A stretch of DNA of 6,521 bases from the IMG/VR virus record IMGVR_UViG_2534681674_000007. The stretch is one strand, 5' to 3'. Position numbers and translations under genes: made by a program. The notes beneath the pieces were generated by a model, which made no database searches, had not been told where the DNA came from, and saw only the letters and a program-made list of their open reading frames with translations. The stretch comes from a virus (taxonomy: Duplodnaviria; Heunggongvirae; Uroviricota; Caudoviricetes). Of this stretch, positions 1 through 6,521 are shown one piece after another (the first letter of the stretch is position 1; the number at the start of each line of letters is the position of its first letter).

Positions 1-41
1 ATTTTGCTGGCGCGTGAGGAATATAGCCCCGAATAAATCAT
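1..41 (-). CDS. 5' end of a nin-region gene continuing beyond the window start (N-terminal fragment only, MIYSGLYSSRASK...)
   Basis: ATG at 41..39 on - strand lies 9 nt downstream of the NinE stop; frame stays open to position 1. Only 13 codons visible, so identity unknown. Confidence 0.25.
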   Translation of the reverse strand, partial: MIYSGLYSSRASK

Positions 42-49
42 CGCGTCAA

Positions 50-232
50 TCACCTTGTTTTCCTCGCACGATGTCTTAGCCACCGGATATCCCACAGATG
101 AGCCGTGTAGTTGAAGGTTTTTACGTCAGATTCTTTTGGGATTGGCTTGCGTTTATTTCTGGAGCGTTTCGTTGGAAGGTATTTGCAGTTTTCGCAGATG
201 ATGTCGGTGATACTTCTTCGCTGTCGCCTCAT
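50..232 (-). CDS. ninE: NinE-like protein (60 aa)
   Basis: Translation from internal Met ([23 protein letters not shown]...[16 protein letters not shown]) matches my recollection of lambda NinE. ATG at 232..230 overlaps the upstream methyltransferase stop (229..231) in an ATGA coupling motif. The ORF-track start at 322 would overlap the upstream gene by 90 nt and is not preferred. Confidence 0.7.
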
Positions 233-756
233 GCCGCCCTTCTGACGCCCTGCCCGATCGCCATCAATGCCGCTTTGGATACGGTAGTAAACATCCGTCG
301 AGGACTGATGAACGGTCGCCAAATCAGCAGCATGGAGCCTTTGCTGTTTCCCTTCTTCTCCAGCCCCGTCGATGGTTCGATAAAATTAATCCGTCCATCA
401 GTGATAATGCGAACTTCGTCGACACTCTCCAGAGCCTTGCTGAACCATCCGACTGACATATCCTCTGGCACAAGCATCACTACCGTCTGTCGCTGTTGTA
501 TGCACTGCTCAGCGGCTTTTTCCACCCACGGCCTGATATTGCTGTACGGTGGGTTATTCCAGATTGCCCCGTGGCTTATCCACTCAGAATTTAGCGCGTC
601 GTCGGCCTCAGTTAGCCAGTGAGCACACAGAGCATTTTTGTCGCTCGCTGCCGAATCCAGCCAGAATCCAAACTCAATATCCAGTGCATCAAAAAGCCAA
701 AGCGGCGTTTGCCAGCAGTCCTTGTCGTGTGCTGGCGTATTTGATTTGATAGTCAT
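229..756 (-). CDS. phage DNA N6-adenine methyltransferase (Dam-like, orphan MTase)
   Basis: Translation [26 protein letters not shown]...WNNPPYS... carries the NPPY catalytic motif and the DxxCWQTP N-terminal motif of phage Dam-family MTases. ATG at 756..754 overlaps the NinB stop (ATGA). Position between ninB and ninE is typical of lambdoid/Stx-type phages. Confidence 0.85.
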
Positions 757-1196
757 GCTGCCCGATCTCCCCATCGCGCTTTCCATTCGAGAGCCAGTCG
801 AGCTTCGTCTGACCACTTAACGCCACGCTCTGTACCGAATGCCTGTATAAGCTCTAATAGCTCCGCAAATTCGCTTACACGCATCCTGCTGGTTGACTGG
901 CCTATTACCACAAAGCCATTCCCGGCAAGGTTAGGAACAACGTCCTGCTGCTTTAATGCTGCGGTAAACACACACTTCCAGCTTTCTGCATCCAGCCAGC
1001 GACCATGCCATTCAACCTGACGAGAGACGTCACCTAAGCAGGCCCATAGCTTCCTGTTTTGGTCTAAGCTGCGGTTGCGTTCCTGAATGGTTACTACGAT
1101 TGGTTTGGTTGGGTCTGGAAGAATTTGCTGGATAGCTTGAATGGCGTTCTGCTGATGGATGGGGCTTCTTAGTTCAAACGTTAGTTTCCTCACCAT
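753..1196 (-). CDS. ninB: NinB (Orf-family recombination mediator)
   Basis: 147-aa translation (MVRKLTFELRSPIHQQNAIQAIQQILPDPTKPIVVTIQERNRSLDQNRKLWACLGDVSRQVEWHGRW...) is near-identical to lambda NinB as I recall it. Strong SD (AGGAG, 5-nt spacer) upstream of ATG 1196. Confidence 0.9.
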   Translation of the reverse strand: MVRKLTFELRSPIHQQNAIQAIQQILPDPTKPIVVTIQERNRSLDQNRKLWACLGDVSRQVEWHGRWLDAESWKCVFTAALKQQDVVPNLAGNGFVVIGQSTSRMRVSEFAELLELIQAFGTERGVKWSDEARLALEWKARWGDRAA

Positions 1197-1338
1197 TTAC
1201 GCTCCTGTAATCGTCAAGTGCAGCTGCAATAGTCCCTATCTGGTCATGGTCTTGCCCGATAATCTCATTTACGTTTTCATCTTCTTCCACACCGAAAAAG
1301 AATCGCAGGGCTAACATGATTTCTTCGTATGCGCTCAT
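1174..1338 (-). CDS. small acidic hypothetical protein (54 aa, ~13 D/E vs 2 K/R)
   Basis: Not in the ORF track (<60 aa). ATG at 1338..1336 is preceded by AGGAG with a 5-nt spacer; translates MSAYEEIMLALRFFFGVEEDENVNEIIGQDHDQIGTIAAALDDYRSVNGEETNV; stop TGA at 1176..1174. Starts 2 nt after the stop of the upstream 87-aa ORF and overlaps the ninB start by 23 nt. Confidence 0.4.
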   Translation of the reverse strand: MSAYEEIMLALRFFFGVEEDENVNEIIGQDHDQIGTIAAALDDYRSVNGEETNV

Positions 1339-1340
1339 AC

Positions 1341-1604
1341 TCACTCCTTCACTTTGACTCCAGCAGTGCGGATGGCCTCTACATCGCTTTCGTATTGTGA
1401 TTCTGCACCTGTGTCATAGCCAATGTGATAATCACCGGGAAGTGGGCCTTTCTTTGGCTTTTGCAGCTCAATTTCAAAAGCTGCTCGCGATGCCTGCCAC
1501 GCTTGCCAATACATCTCAACCATATTGGCGTATATTTTATTTTTAGGATCACATCCGGTGTAATTTTCAAACCATTCTTCAAACTGCTTTCTTGATTCGT
1601 CCAT
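1341..1604 (-). CDS. hypothetical phage protein (87 aa)
   Basis: Open frame with SD-like GAGGG 8 nt upstream of ATG 1604; tightly packed in the operon between the helicase and ninB. No family recognised from sequence. Confidence 0.5.
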   Translation of the reverse strand: MDESRKQFEEWFENYTGCDPKNKIYANMVEMYWQAWQASRAAFEIELQKPKKGPLPGDYHIGYDTGAESQYESDVEAIRTAGVKVKE

Positions 1605-1621
1605 CGGTACTTACCCTCAGT

Positions 1622-1828
1622 TCAACTCACAAAACGCCACGCCATTTTTGCTACGACAACAGGCATAACACCGATAATCACCCACAGGAAAATGCTACCG
1701 AGAAGCACACCAACCAGGTCTTTACCTTCGCCTAACAACCGGACAAAACTGCTGGCAACCACGATGAACGTCGACACCATCCACATAGCACCGAGAATCC
1801 TCAATGCAGAGAAAATTAACTCAGCCAC
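1622..1828 (-). CDS. small hydrophobic membrane protein (68 aa, two predicted TM helices)
   Basis: GTG start at 1828..1826 preceded by GGGGAGAG (6-nt spacer). Translation shows two hydrophobic stretches (approx. residues 5-28 and 40-60) separated by a short charged loop (RLLGEGKDL). No family recognised. Confidence 0.45.
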   Translation of the reverse strand: MAELIFSALRILGAMWMVSTFIVVASSFVRLLGEGKDLVGVLLGSIFLWVIIGVMPVVVAKMAWRFVS

Positions 1829-1842
1829 GATTTACTCTCCCC

Positions 1843-1875
1843 AAAATAAAAAGGCCTGCGATTACCAGCAGGCCT
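1843..1875 (-). terminator. Rho-independent terminator candidate downstream of the helicase gene (tR2-like position)
   Basis: Perfect 8-bp GC-rich stem (1852..1859 AGGCCTGC / 1868..1875 GCAGGCCT) with an 8-nt loop; on the - strand it is followed by TTTTTATTTT (plus-strand A-run 1841..1851). Lies 26 nt after the helicase stop. Confidence 0.5.
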
Positions 1876-1900
1876 GTTATTAGCTCAGTGATGTAGATGG

Positions 1901-3277
1901 TCATACGTCAGCCCCTTGTGCATATCGTCTGCCACGTGCAGCGGGTGCATTTGATGTTGTGCAAATCTGTCTGGCTTCATCCTGGTCACACGCAACAAAG
2001 TGTCCGTTGCAGAACCGCTGGTAAACCGTACCAAGCGAGCCAAAACGGTTTTTCGTCACGATGATTTCAGCAAATGGCGCGGCGCTACTGTTCTCGTCAT
2101 ATACCGCTTCCCGATAGAGCATGATGATTGAGTCTGCGTCCTGCTCAATGCTTCCTGAATCACGCAAATCTGCGTTTGTCGGGCGTTTATTTGGTCGCTT
2201 CTCAACATCGCGCGAAAGCTGACTCAGGGAGATAACAGGCGTTTTCAGGTCTTTCGCCATCGCCTTCAGGCTTCCGGAGATGTGAGCAATTGCAAGGTCG
2301 TTGCGGTCTGCTTTCGGCTTCTCAATCAGGCCAAGATAATCCGCCATGATGAGTGACAGGTTTGGATTTTCCTGTTTGTGCCGTTCTGCGATTGAGCGTA
2401 TTTCTTCGACCGATAACCGCGATGCATCGACTACCCATACATCCAAATCTGCAAGCTGACTCATGCCGTTAGCAACACGCGCCCAGCCTTCGTCATCCAT
2501 CGATGCAGGATTTCGCAGCACGCTAACCGACATCCTCCCGGCGTTGGCAATGCTCCGCTCTGCAATCTGCAATGCGCTCATTTCCATTGAGAAAATCAAT
2601 ACTCCGCGCCGGACGTCAGAACCAGGAATAACGCGGCTTGCAACACCTTCGGCAATCTTCAGCGCCAGTTCGGTTTTCCCCATACCAGGACGAGCGGCGA
2701 TAATCACCAGGTCTTCCGCGTTCATCCCTCCGGTGATAGCGTCAAGTTCTTCGATTCCGGTCTTCAGGGTATCGGACTCTTCTCCGTTCCTCAGACGCCT
2801 GTCAAGCGTGTCAGTGTAGTCAGTAATGATTTCCCCTAACCGTACAGGTTTAACCTCGTCACTGGGCTTTCTGATGGCTGAAAGACGCTTTACAAGCTCA
2901 TCCATCGCCTGACTCGATGCGTCGATGGTTCCGCTCTGAATTGGTTCACGCATTTCATCCATGATTTCCAGCACCAGACGGCGGTGATAGTTATCCGCGA
3001 CCATTCCGGCATATCCCTTCAGGTTTGCGGCGCTCGGGCAGTTTTTGCTGGTCATCAGGATTGACGTGAAATGCTCCTCTCCGCACGCCTCGGCAACCAT
3101 CAGCGCGTCGATTATGTTTCTGTTTCGCGCCTGCTTGCGGATAACCTCGAAGGCTTTCCGGTAGAGCGGAATTGAAAACGCTTCCGGCTCCAGCGTTGCA
3201 AGAACGTCACTGGCGGTTGGAGTTAATCCACCAATCAGCAGGCCACCGATAACGCTCGCTTCGATATCCTGTCTCAT
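1901..3277 (-). CDS. replicative DNA helicase, DnaB family (phage P22 gene 12-like)
   Basis: 458-aa translation has DnaB hallmarks: N-terminal [13 protein letters not shown], Walker [26 protein letters not shown], and C-terminal [36 protein letters not shown] at 3277..3275 overlaps the upstream gene stop (ATGA); SD GGGGGA upstream. Confidence 0.92.
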
Positions 3278-3846
3278 GCAATCCCCCTGTCTGCAAACTT
3301 CCCTTCCCGTACTCCCGTTAACGAATCTTCCCTCAGCAGGTAATCAAAATCTGCCGTCCAGCCAGTGTCGTTGTCTCCGAAGTAAAACGGCTTGGCCTGA
3401 TGCACAAACGCCCTGACATACGCTCTGAAACCGTCCACGTTTGGCGTTTTCAGTTGTGGGATGATTTTCTTCAGGCGGCGTTTGCGTTTCTCGTTGACCG
3501 CAACAGCGTGTGGCAGTCTGTCACCGACTTCGGTGTTGTAGGCGTTCAGGAAGGATTCGTAGTCGATTCGTTCTGCCTTGCGACGTTCAGGTTTAACCTG
3601 CCCATCGCCTCCCCCATTGGGGGGTAGGGGGGTATTATTTATATTCTTGTTAATACCTTCTTGTTCATGATGTGCGGTTGTTTGTGCGGCTTCATGTGCG
3701 CTTTCATGTGCGGCATGTGCGCTGAAAGCCGCGCCATTACTGTCTTCGTCATGTGCGGCATCATGTGCGGTTGTTTGTGCGGCTTCATGTGCGGGTAAAT
3801 TGTCCATTTTTTGAGCATATTCATGGTAATTTGTGATGGTTATCAC
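3274..3846 (-). CDS. replication initiation protein, lambda O / P22 gp18-like, N-terminally truncated at the IS junction (linker plus C-terminal domain only)
   Basis: ORF opens with GTG at 3846..3844 immediately adjacent to the IS end; the in-frame stop upstream lies inside the IS terminus. The 5' third encodes AH[E/D]AA-type repeats, then an Asn/Gly/Pro-rich linker, then a C-terminal domain (..[25 protein letters not shown]..) resembling phage replication initiator C-termini. Sits immediately upstream of and translationally coupled to the helicase. The N-terminal iteron-binding domain is absent. Confidence 0.6.
3666..3795. repeat. iteron-like tandem array: about 9 copies of (C)ATGTGCG(G) at roughly 12-bp phasing, including an exact 31-bp direct repeat (3670..3700 and 3763..3793)
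   Basis: ATGTGCG at 3670, 3694, 3706, 3715, 3751, 3763, 3787 and TTGTGCG at 3683, 3776. ATGTGCGGTTGTTTGTGCGGCTTCATGTGCG is repeated exactly 93 bp apart. Lies inside the O-like gene and is followed (in the direction of O transcription) by an AT-rich tract at 3633..3655. Confidence 0.6.
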
Positions 3847-3888
3847 TGAACCGCCCCGGGTTTCCTGGAGAGTATTTTATCTGTGAAC

Positions 3889-4776
3889 TCAGGCTGCCAG
3901 ATCATTATTTCCGATGGAAGCATAATAAGCTTTTTCTGCTTCTGCCGGAGGAATATGGCCCAGCCTTTCCAGCAATCGTCGATTGTTATACCAGTCCACC
4001 CACGTTAGTGTGGCCAGTTCCACTTCTGTCCGGTTTTTCCAGCTATTACGGTGTATTACCTCCGCTTTGTAAAGACCATTGATGCTCTCAGCCATCGCGT
4101 TGTCATACGAGTCGCCAGTACTCCCTGTTGATGCCAGTAATCCGGCTTCCTTAAGCCGCTGCGTGTAGGCCAGCGATACATACTGAGAACCTTTATCACT
4201 GTGATGGATTGTGCCGGACGGCCGACGGGCCCACAACGCCTGCTCCAGTGCATCCAGCACGAATGTCGTTTCCATAGACGATGAGACTCGCCACCCCACG
4301 ATACATCCGGCAAACACATCAATGATGAACGCCACATAGACGAAGCCCTGCCATGTGCTGACGTAAGTAAAATCAGCCACCCACAGCTGGTCAGGACGTT
4401 CTGCCACGAACTGACGGTTTACGCGGTCGCCTGCGGAAACGGCTTTCCGGCTGACGGTAGTACGGACCTTTTTACCCCGGAGAACACCGGCAAGTCCCAT
4501 AACCGCCATGAGGCGCGCCACTGTACATCTGGCCACCCTGATACCTTCGCGTAACAACTGGCGCCAGACTTTACGCACACCGTACACCTGATGATTTTCA
4601 TCGTATACGCGCTGTATCTCTCTCTTCAGCCAGTCATCGTGCTGCGCACGGGCACTGCGTTTATCCGGATGATGTCGCTGTTGCTGACAATGGTAATACG
4701 TTGACGGGGCAATATGCAGTTCGCTGCATACCGGTCCGACCCCGTACTGCTCACGCAGCTTATCCAGCAGCGGCAT
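3889..4776 (-). CDS. IS629-like transposase OrfB (DDE catalytic domain, 295 aa)
   Basis: Contains the DDE triad context (..LWVADFTYV.., ..HHSDKGSQYVS.., ..DNAMAESINGLYKAE..) typical of IS3-family integrase-fold transposases. In -1 frame relative to orfA, with overlap at 4776. Confidence 0.9.
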   Translation of the reverse strand: MPLLDKLREQYGVGPVCSELHIAPSTYYHCQQQRHHPDKRSARAQHDDWLKREIQRVYDENHQVYGVRKVWRQLLREGIRVARCTVARLMAVMGLAGVLRGKKVRTTVSRKAVSAGDRVNRQFVAERPDQLWVADFTYVSTWQGFVYVAFIIDVFAGCIVGWRVSSSMETTFVLDALEQALWARRPSGTIHHSDKGSQYVSLAYTQRLKEAGLLASTGSTGDSYDNAMAESINGLYKAEVIHRNSWKNRTEVELATLTWVDWYNNRRLLERLGHIPPAEAEKAYYASIGNNDLAA

Positions 4777-5102
4777 TATTTTTTCCAGAGGCGGTCGAAC
4801 TCCGCCTTCGCAAAATAAGCGGAAGCCTGGCGAAGGATATCGTTACTGCGGCGCAGTTCACGATTTTCACGTTCCAGCTCTTTCAGACGCTGACGTTCAG
4901 CGGTGGTGAGTCCACCATCACCACTCCCGGTATCCCGCTCACGCTGACGAACCCACACACGCAGAGTCTCTGGTGTACAGCCAATCTTTGGGGCAATGGA
5001 ACAAATTGCCGCCCATTGTGAGTCATATTCGCCCTGACTTTCCAGAACCATACGAATCGCCCGCTGACGGACTTCGGGGGAAAAACGAGTATTTTTAGTC
5101 AT
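4776..5102 (-). CDS. IS629-like transposase OrfA (HTH DNA-binding subunit, 108 aa)
   Basis: [51 protein letters not shown]... with a leucine-zipper-like C-terminus ([30 protein letters not shown]), typical of IS3-family OrfA. Ends in AAA AAA TAA overlapping the orfB ATG. Confidence 0.9.
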
Positions 5103-5293
5103 CCTGTTTACCTCTTTCTCAGGGAGTTTAGTCTCCAGGATTTCCGGGGCGGTTCATTACCGATATCGATACATCAGGAATATTTGATTCAGATGATATG
5201 ACTATCAAAGCCGCCTGAGCGCGGCTTTACCGCATACCAATAATGCTTCACGAGAGGCATTTTCGTTATGCAATCAAATATAAGGAGTTACCC

Positions 5294-5428
5294 ATGATGC
5301 ACTTTCAGCTCGCGGGTAGCGGCGTCATGTCCGCTTTCTACCCGCACGAATCTGAATTATCACGCCGAGTTAAACAATTAATCAGAGCAGCAAAGAAACA
5401 ACTGGAGGCGTTATGCGCAATGAAATAG
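5294..5428 (+). CDS. small hypothetical protein (44 aa)
   Basis: ATG 5294 is preceded by TAAGGAG with a 7-nt spacer; translates MMHFQLAGSGVMSAFYPHESELSRRVKQLIRAAKKQLEALCAMK. The ORF-track upstream start at 5243 has no SD. Confidence 0.4.
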   Translation: MMHFQLAGSGVMSAFYPHESELSRRVKQLIRAAKKQLEALCAMK

Positions 5429-5565
5429 CCATTAATCACCAGATGCTTCGTGCTGCACAGAACAAAGCAGTAATAGCCCGATTTATTGGTGATTCAAAAA
5501 TGTGGCTTGAAGCAAATAAAGCGATGAAATCAGCTATCAACCTTCCGTGGTATCGCAGGAAATGA
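5413..5565 (+). CDS. small hypothetical protein (50 aa)
   Basis: Not in ORF track (<60 aa). ATG 5413 is preceded by GGAGG (4-nt spacer); translates MRNEIAINHQMLRAAQNKAVIARFIGDSKMWLEANKAMKSAINLPWYRRK; stop TGA 5563..5565. Confidence 0.4.
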   Translation: MRNEIAINHQMLRAAQNKAVIARFIGDSKMWLEANKAMKSAINLPWYRRK

Positions 5566-5720
5566 GTTTTACAGATAACTGGTCAGACGAAGAATTCATT
5601 CGTCAGATGAAAGATTTAATCGGTAACGAAGGAGATATTCATGTCACTTGCAACCACAGTGAAGGAGAGCAAGTTACAGAGACGCATGTACACGCAGAAA
5701 GCTCTCTGGTATCGCCATAA
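5562..5720 (+). CDS. small hypothetical protein (52 aa), alternative to or overlapping 5641..5811
   Basis: ATG 5562 overlaps the preceding stop (ATGA); weak SD. Translates MSFTDNWSDEEFIRQMKDLIGNEGDIHVTCNHSEGEQVTETHVHAESSLVSP. Overlaps the next candidate in a different frame, so at most one model may be fully correct. Confidence 0.3.
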   Translation: MSFTDNWSDEEFIRQMKDLIGNEGDIHVTCNHSEGEQVTETHVHAESSLVSP

Positions 5721-5811
5721 TGGCGACCGCGAAGGAATGCGGGTATGCCTTAATTTGTCCCGAGTCGAAGTATTAAATCAGCGTTATTTTCTTGGGCCAT
5801 GTCCATTCTGA
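5641..5811 (+). CDS. small hypothetical protein (56 aa), alternative to or overlapping 5562..5720
   Basis: ATG 5641 is preceded by a near-ideal SD (AAGGAG, 6-nt spacer). Translates MSLATTVKESKLQRRMYTQKALWYRHNGDREGMRVCLNLSRVEVLNQRYFLGPCPF; stop TGA 5809..5811, 8 nt before the downstream gene. Confidence 0.35.
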   Translation: MSLATTVKESKLQRRMYTQKALWYRHNGDREGMRVCLNLSRVEVLNQRYFLGPCPF

Positions 5812-5819
5812 GGTGAATT

Positions 5820-6521
5820 ATGGATTTGAACAAATTCGATGAGCCATTCAGCCCTGAAGATATCGAATGGCGAATACAGCAAAGCGGTAAAACACGCGAT
5901 GGAAAGGTGTGGGCTATGGTGCTGGCTTATGTCACGAACAGGGCAATCATGAAACGCCTGGATGATGTTTGCGGCAAAGCAGGATGGCGCAATGAATACC
6001 GCGATATTCCCAACAACGGCGGCGTTGAATGCGGCATATCAATAAAGATTGATTCCGAATGGGTAACCAAATGGGATGCTGCTGAAAACACGCAGGTAGA
6101 AGCCGTCAAAGGTGGTCGTTCCGGTGCAATGAAGCGCGCTGCCGTTCAGTGGGGAATCGGTCGGTATCTGTATAACCTTGAGGAAGGTTTCGCACAAACA
6201 TCTCTCGATAAAAAGCAGGGGTGGCACAGGGCAAAACTGAAGGATGGAACAGGATTTTACTGGCTCCCTCCATCGCTTCCGGGATGGGCAATCCCAGCAT
6301 CAGATAACAAACCATCACCAGAAAATACCAACCAGAAATCTCCATCGGTTGACTGCGAACAAATCCTGAAAGACTTCAGCGATTATGCGTCAACAGAAAC
6401 TGACAAGAAAAAACTCATCGAGCGTTATCAGCGTGACTGGCAATTAATGGCTGGCAACGAGGAAGCGCAGGCTAAATGCGTTCAGGTAATGAACATCAGA
6501 GTTAACGAACTAAAACCGTAA
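5820..6521 (+). CDS. Rad52-like single-strand annealing protein (phage Sak/Rad52 family recombinase)
   Basis: 233-aa ORF with SD AGGTGA upstream of ATG 5820. N-terminal region (..VLAYVTNRAIMKRLDDVCGKAGWRNEY.. and ..VKGGRSGAMKRAAVQWGIGRYLYNL..) follows the conserved Rad52 N-terminal-domain pattern (RLD..G..GW and a K(R)A...G(I)GRYLY-like motif). Assignment from motif recollection, not a search. Confidence 0.65.
   Translation: MDLNKFDEPFSPEDIEWRIQQSGKTRDGKVWAMVLAYVTNRAIMKRLDDVCGKAGWRNEYRDIPNNGGVECGISIKIDSEWVTKWDAAENTQVEAVKGGRSGAMKRAAVQWGIGRYLYNLEEGFAQTSLDKKQGWHRAKLKDGTGFYWLPPSLPGWAIPASDNKPSPENTNQKSPSVDCEQILKDFSDYASTETDKKKLIERYQRDWQLMAGNEEAQAKCVQVMNIRVNELKP

Follow-up and report, generated by a model that had tools for sequence, protein, structure and literature searches.

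Defective or cryptic lambdoid prophages are known from enterohaemorrhagic Escherichia coli (EHEC), for example in the prophage pool of O157 Sakai, where insertion sequences (ISs) or deletions have disabled the phage and its virulence cargo has been retained. IS629 is located in prophages in 62% of its copies and creates target duplications of 3-4 bp, and in four O157:H7 genomes just 21 of 47 sites retain a perfect one (PMC3271280). A further paper places IS629 behind many genomic deletions and describes IEE-dependent deletions that adjoin the IS and extend from a few nucleotides to more than 40 kb (PMC9943667, which summarises Ooka et al. 2009 and, for IEE, Kusumoto et al. 2011). Here, we describe a 6521-bp window that is the entire contig AEZJ02000010.1 of draft assembly GCA_000194215.2, from E. 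coli 97.0246, a strain listed as Shiga toxin-producing (STEC) and O5:H- (PMC4551483). The window holds an intact IS629/IS1203 element between two divergent early operons of a lambdoid prophage, and we consider it highly likely that the Stx1a-type prophage of this strain has lost 5930 bp, with the intact IS629 standing at the deletion point. As in the IS629-associated deletions of EHEC summarised in PMC9943667, the deletion has an IS629 end as its border, is of kilobase scale and affects an STEC prophage; the strain is O5:H- and not O157.

Over the left flank (1-3846), identity to the Stx1a prophage of strain 2013C-4974 (NZ_CP027587.1 531530-536688, where another IS within the helicase gene splits the match) is 100.0%, and it is equally 100.0% to the Stx1a prophage of strain OkiPb01713. 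The right flank (5156-6516) matches that 2013C-4974 prophage at 100% identity (fetched locus L003 5001-6361). In 2013C-4974 the two flanks are collinear, in native orientation and 5930 bp apart, and the segment missing from the window is NZ_CP027587.1 525600-531529. The early region of this prophage (~517-545 kb) is the undeleted reference; unlike the window, it has the full immunity region, together with its own IS629 copies, one within the helicase gene and one within a gene for a 3'-5' exonuclease. The initial annotation, made from the letters of the window, had proposed mapping both flanks onto intact phage genomes and looking for another strain with an intact cI-cro-N region at this locus, and 2013C-4974 answers on both points.

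The same alignments bear on the idea that IS629 recombination between two prophages, or an IS-mediated inversion, produced a chimeric prophage. Strains of this kind hold at least 40 IS629 copies and several lambdoid prophages, and large prophage- or IS-mediated rearrangements are documented in EHEC. However, both flanks match one and the same Stx1a prophage in its native order and orientation, 5.9 kb apart, whereas the remaining prophages reach only ~94-97% on the flanks. Because both flanks are fully identical to one prophage, inter-prophage recombination is extremely improbable, and an inversion would have flipped one flank, whereas neither is reversed.

The lost block extends from O codon 105 to DUF2528 codon 102. 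At its DUF2528 end lie the first 102 DUF2528 codons, a hypothetical gene, the antiterminator gene N and a small hypothetical gene; in its middle a Ser/Thr kinase gene, a hypothetical (RuvC-family) gene and a DUF3024 gene; and at its O end a LexA-family cI, cro, cII, a hypothetical gene and the first 105 O codons. Pfam matches confirm N (N36), cI (HTH_3 and Peptidase_S24), cro (Cro) and cII (Phage_CII) in the reference, and checks by open reading frame (ORF), Pfam and gene call find none of these four genes within the window. Their absence had been noticed at the outset, when the missing region was put at about 2 kb or more; the loss stands and its size was underestimated. The kinase is eukaryote-like (Pkinase, E=2e-46) and sits beside the DUF3024 and RuvC-family genes between cI and N; this cargo module, at locus L008 3512-4558 of 2013C-4974, is gone from the window.

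The breakpoints were placed by base-level alignment to 5-6 independent references, drawn from CUS-3, two Stx2a phages, 2013C-4974, TW10590 and CDC#03-98, and both lie exactly at the IS termini. Intact relatives read ...ATCAC and then ACG(G/A)CC... across the left breakpoint, and ...AAGAA and then TTACCG... across the right one. The features at the two ends are as follows:

3844..3846, no strand: left deletion breakpoint, CAC; intact relatives run on from ...ATCAC into ACG(G/A)CCTTTTTGC.
5157..5159, no strand: right deletion breakpoint, TTA; intact relatives read ...GGAATAAGAA up to the breakpoint and TTACCGATATC after it.
3846..3274, - strand: O remnant, the 3' part of the gene, codons 106-295 of 295, without the Phage_rep_O DNA-binding domain (alignment to intact O).
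5157..5218, + strand: 3' remnant of the DUF2528 gene, the last 20 of 122 codons, ITDIDTSGIFDSDDMTIKAA followed by the stop (alignment to the intact gene).

The bases beside the IS differ, CAC (3844-3846) against TTA (5157-5159) or, at 4 bp, TCAC against TTAC. On the - strand to the right of the IS, the first would-be O codon (5159..5157) is TAA, and TAG follows in the same frame at 5204..5202; the N-terminus of O is not there. We read the event as an IS-associated deletion and not a simple insertion because both flanks align collinearly to a single intact reference that has additional DNA between them, each breakpoint falls at an IS terminus and CAC does not match TTA. The window IS has no 3-4-bp target duplication, probably because one or both of its original flanks were deleted. 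These results bear out the main proposals of the initial annotation: flanks that are not a direct repeat, an O-like frame that begins at the IS boundary, an O N-terminus absent on the far side, and, as the cause, either a deletion associated with the IS or recombination of two copies of it, which would have left a cryptic prophage. It had also named findings that would speak against this, and the alignments gave the opposite: no duplicate flanks the element, positions 3846 and 5157 are adjacent in no reference, and a full-length O of 295 aa exists.

Around the right breakpoint, we noted 'partial' DUF2528 proteins that are exactly 102 aa long and represent several alleles (P0016, P0018 and P0026) on ~180 draft-genome contigs, so that these contigs break at the same codon as the window's right breakpoint. 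Such breaks could be a recurrent IS629 target or the boundary of a prophage repeat; no IS was found at this exact site in the complete E. coli genomes searched.

The identity of the element itself is clear. It spans 3847-5156, within the looser frame of 3833-5204 first given for it, is 1310 bp long, has the ends TGAACCG...CGGTTCA and is bounded by 41-nt imperfect inverted repeats that are 76% complementary (3847-3887 and 5116-5156). Its parts are:

3847..5156, - strand: complete IS629/IS1203-type insertion sequence of the IS3 family (inverted repeats, full-length identity, Pfam).
3847..3887, no strand: IRR, the orfB-side terminal inverted repeat, touching the truncated O (41-nt inverted repeat pair).
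5116..5156, no strand: IRL, the orfA-side terminal inverted repeat, touching the DUF2528 remnant (41-nt inverted repeat pair).
4776..5102, - strand: IS orfA, 108 aa (Pfam HTH_Tnp_1).
3889..4776, - strand: IS orfB, 295 aa (Pfam HTH_21 and rve, the DDE core).
4705..4821, - strand: ALIL pseudoknot RF01497, an IS3-family frameshift stimulator (Rfam, 120.2 bits against a gathering score of 50, E=1e-31).

The two ORFs overlap at an A-run and yield an orfAB fusion via a -1 frameshift; gene calling reports them as a single 404-aa gene, and homologous IS copies bear the annotation 'programmed frameshift'. Full-length identity is 99.9% with copies annotated as IS3 family and 95-99% with those labelled IS1203, and matches occur in 7013 E. 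coli records and in 4257 of 5426 complete E. coli genomes. The window IS shares with the IS629/IS1203 reference the 1310-bp length, the TGAACCG termini, the frameshifted orfA/orfB layout, the ALIL pseudoknot, the rve DDE domain and an identity of 95-99.9%. The one usual trait that it lacks is the 3-4-bp target-site duplication, as is to be expected of a copy that borders a deletion; this has no bearing on the element's identity. The inverted repeats, the Pfam matches and the 99.9% identity uphold the first recognition of an IS629-like element of 1310 bp between divergent operons.

As a control for the duplication, we turned to the fetched loci, which contain eight other full-length IS629 copies, and inspected their flanks. 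Clean 3-4-bp duplications border five of them (CTC, TTG, GATC, GAA and CCC), a sixth, in the helicase gene of 2013C-4974, has an imperfect one (GTG/GTT), and the last two have none. The closed genome of OkiPb01713 (NZ_AP042682.1) provides a close parallel, in which an IS629 copy without duplication replaces 1772 bp (L003 4344-6115) and is flanked by a truncated hypothetical gene and a truncated rad52. This is an independent IS-bordered deletion in the same prophage. It resembles the one described here in the prophage affected (100% over 1-3846), the IS family, the missing duplication and the truncated genes on both sides; it differs in that its breakpoints run from the hypothetical gene after N to rad52, the IS is reversed, and cI, cro and O are intact. 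The two bordering IS copies differ at 40 of 1310 positions.

A different reading of the junction would be a simple IS629 insertion into a phage whose O is naturally ~190 aa long and whose immunity genes lie elsewhere. Its sole support is that the O remnant forms an open frame of 190 codons that begins at the IS boundary with GTG. Intact O, however, is 295 aa long, with Phage_rep_O at residues 1-112, and this protein, 100% identical over the shared 190 residues, is found in the sister strains and on 938 contigs. In CUS-3 and Stx2a phage 981509, a 315-aa O runs through the breakpoint; cII-cro-cI-N lies directly upstream in every relative; and the target duplication is missing. The naturally short O is thereby refuted, and the alignment indicates that the GTG 'start' corresponds to the internal Val106 of O. 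A Pfam scan of the remnant gave no match, and an exact look-up of the protein from an alternative start, 177 aa long, found no such protein on record. We also considered a translational fusion of orfB with the O remnant, which share one frame; there is none, because two in-frame stops within the IS, TGA at 3891..3889 and TAA at 3879..3877, intervene.

For the deletion itself, we propose that IS629 would have inserted within or at the edge of the block that was later lost, and that the DNA from one IS end to a distal site would then have been removed. In a one-copy route, IS629 would have sat at one breakpoint and a transposase/IEE-type deletion would have run from its other end to the distal breakpoint. 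In a two-copy route, same-orientation insertions in O and in DUF2528 would have been followed by homologous recombination between them. Either would leave a single IS with non-matching flanks. An IEE-promoted deletion is expected to show microhomology at the joint; here the retained IS keeps the two host flanks apart. We favour the single-copy, transposase/IEE-type adjacent deletion, to which we would give an even chance, and hold homologous recombination between two copies to be somewhat less probable. The two-copy route stays realistic because the region attracts IS629: F8798 has a simple insertion in DUF2528, 108 bp from the breakpoint; O103/O121 strains carry a copy directly past kil; FDAARGOS_1301 has one in O, ~46 bp from the breakpoint; and OkiPb01713 has a second copy upstream of N, with a 3-bp duplication. 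In E. coli CE10 (NC_017646.1, locus L012 1689-3555), an IS629-like copy links a truncated iss/bor-type lipoprotein gene to intact DUF2528-cIII-kil-gam-bet, which is a further prophage remnant with its immunity region missing beside an IS. We rejected a descent of the window IS from the OkiPb01713 copy upstream of N by two-sided deletions, given the 39 differences between these copies over 1310 positions.

Several observations weigh against a deletion in the Stx1a prophage of 97.0246. Searches of the 5426 complete E. coli genomes found no exact match to either junction of the window, no simple-insertion precursor at either breakpoint and no reciprocal junctions (for the reciprocal DUF2528 junction, 12 of the 22 matches covering at least 80% of the query were inspected). 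The junction searches returned only IS copies 46-410 bp away, in F8798, the O103/O121 strains and FDAARGOS_1301. The join is known from one complete draft-assembly contig of 6521 bp, and that contig stops at dam, short of stx1, which makes the presence of stx1 on this copy an extrapolation. Apart from these results, an exact-pattern scan for the left junction in a collection of species-representative genomes gave 0 matches, and genomes that appeared to hold 'left flank + IS' or 'IS + right flank' proved to be nearby, non-adjacent pieces joined together, with the IS elsewhere in the region.

A draft contig also invites the suspicion of an assembly mis-join, in which two IS629 copies, in O and in DUF2528, flank a retained 5.9-kb segment and have been collapsed into one. 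This would imply the junctions of IS with CAC-ACGACC... and of ...AAGAATTA with IS. In its favour, the window is a short contig of a draft assembly that crosses a multi-copy repeat, genomes of related strains each carry tens of IS629 copies, and the junction is unique to GCA_000194215.2 among the collections searched. In addition, a 1259-bp contig encodes an exact stub of O residues 1-106 (WP_172942245.1), the product expected if the IS had simply inserted and duplicated CAC. Yet the cluster of this stub holds fragments of 67-120 aa, among which a 106-aa member is expected by chance; we discarded it as evidence for a precursor, given the many lengths, and regard it as probably a chance contig break. 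Assemblers usually end a contig at a multi-copy IS and cross it only where there is spanning evidence, the flanks are collinear, correctly oriented and from the same prophage, as a true deletion predicts, and the closed genome of the sister strain OkiPb01713 has the same kind of deletion in the same prophage. On balance a mis-join is unlikely. We also searched for the products that a DUF2528 gene reading into an IS would give: of four models, the three with 0-, 3- and 4-bp duplications (180, 181 and 116 aa) are not on record, and the fourth, ending after codon 102, is on record as a 102-aa stub, of a kind that is common.

The element affected in 97.0246 is its Stx1a prophage by extrapolation from the two sister strains, in which the module runs on through ant, ninG, ninH and Q to stx1A/B. 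Gone from the window are cI, cro, cII, N and the origin-binding domain of O, along with the intergenic regions that would hold pL, pR and pRM. Without these, the prophage should fail at immunity, SOS induction, antitermination and replication. Loss of the repressor, pL/pR, N and the O origin-binding domain would therefore leave it neither inducible nor replicating, locked in the chromosome. The deletion would be tolerated because kil and the replication genes lose their promoters at the same time as the repressor is lost, so that kil and the helicase are not derepressed. The Stx1a-type prophage of 97.0246 is thus very probably non-inducible and non-transmissible, which bears on antibiotic-driven toxin induction and on the spread of stx phages. 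The deletion is a private instance of a process that is already known and well documented in EHEC prophages.

A more active role for the junction can also be imagined, in which read-through from the IS end or a hybrid promoter replaces pR, or in which the retained origin of replication (ori) and the C-terminal O fragment hamper related superinfecting phages. We consider this quite improbable. If true, substitution of pR could lead to low, SOS-independent expression of the late regulator and toxin from a prophage unable to excise or kill. We observed that the IS transposase genes and the operon of truncated O, helicase and nin genes are co-directional (- strand, junction at 3847-3906), and read-through transcription from the IS into the replication and nin genes is possible. 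A promoter scan at the IS edges found one site where 2.3 are expected by chance, and an outward promoter is unsupported.

Across the three closely related strains, we count five distinct IS629 events that affect one and the same Stx1a prophage in its early region. Three are insertions, which lie upstream of N, within the helicase gene and within the 3'-5' exonuclease gene; the other two are the IS-bordered deletions of 1772 bp and 5930 bp. The five events illustrate the speed at which IS629 erodes Stx prophages. The other copies lie at 17365-18674 and 19432-20741 of locus L009 (NZ_AP042682.1), and at L008 8963-10272 and L003 7120-8429 (NZ_CP027587.1). Relative to the window IS, the four other copies that the sister strains carry in their Stx1a prophages differ at 10-40 of 1310 positions, and copies in the remaining fetched loci at up to 61. 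Comparison of the IS629 copies of the lineage with each other gives 10-77 differences over 1310 positions, and several IS629 subtypes are therefore active in it.

The rest of the window is laid out as two divergent blocks. Left of the IS, the - strand carries the O-like frame and genes for a DnaB-type helicase, small nin-region ORFs, and genes for NinB and a Dam methylase; right of it, the + strand carries cIII, kil and the gene for a Rad52/Rad22-type recombinase. The two sides are the early operons, divergently oriented, of a lambdoid phage whose replication module is of the P22/CUS-3 type, an assignment based on Pfam matches of the window ORFs and of intact O and on synteny with CUS-3, Stx2a phage 981509 and the Stx1a prophages. 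The genes on either side of the deletion include:

1901..3277, - strand: intact DnaB-type replicative helicase (P22 gene 12-like 'P'), downstream of the O remnant (Pfam DnaB and DnaB_C).
5294..5428, + strand: cIII, the first intact gene of the early-left operon past the IS, with its promoter pL deleted (Pfam cIII, gene call).
5413..5565, + strand: kil (Pfam Lambda_Kil).
5820..6521, + strand: Rad52/Rad22-type recombinase (Pfam).

At the far end of the contig, the final five bases (6517-6521) are CGTAA, against AGGCG in 2013C-4974. All BLAST matches end at 6516, and the Rad52-type ORF is thus 233 aa long rather than 235 aa. This divergence is either a further junction in strain 97.0246 or a contig-end artefact.

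Finally, the O remnant contains one further feature:

3619..3806, no strand: repeat-rich stretch in the O remnant, with 12-nt periodic repeats, an A+T-rich stretch and GGGGGGTA twice.

The 12-nt repeats (consensus TCATGTGCGGCT; 3683-3714 and 3749-3794) encode repeats of the HEAAQTTAH type. They are followed, in the direction of O, by A+T-rich sequence at ~3634-3660 and then by the two copies of GGGGGGTA (3619-3634). This layout is like that of a lambdoid ori embedded in O, and the stretch is predicted to be the probable phage ori; the ori may persist despite the loss of the O DNA-binding domain.

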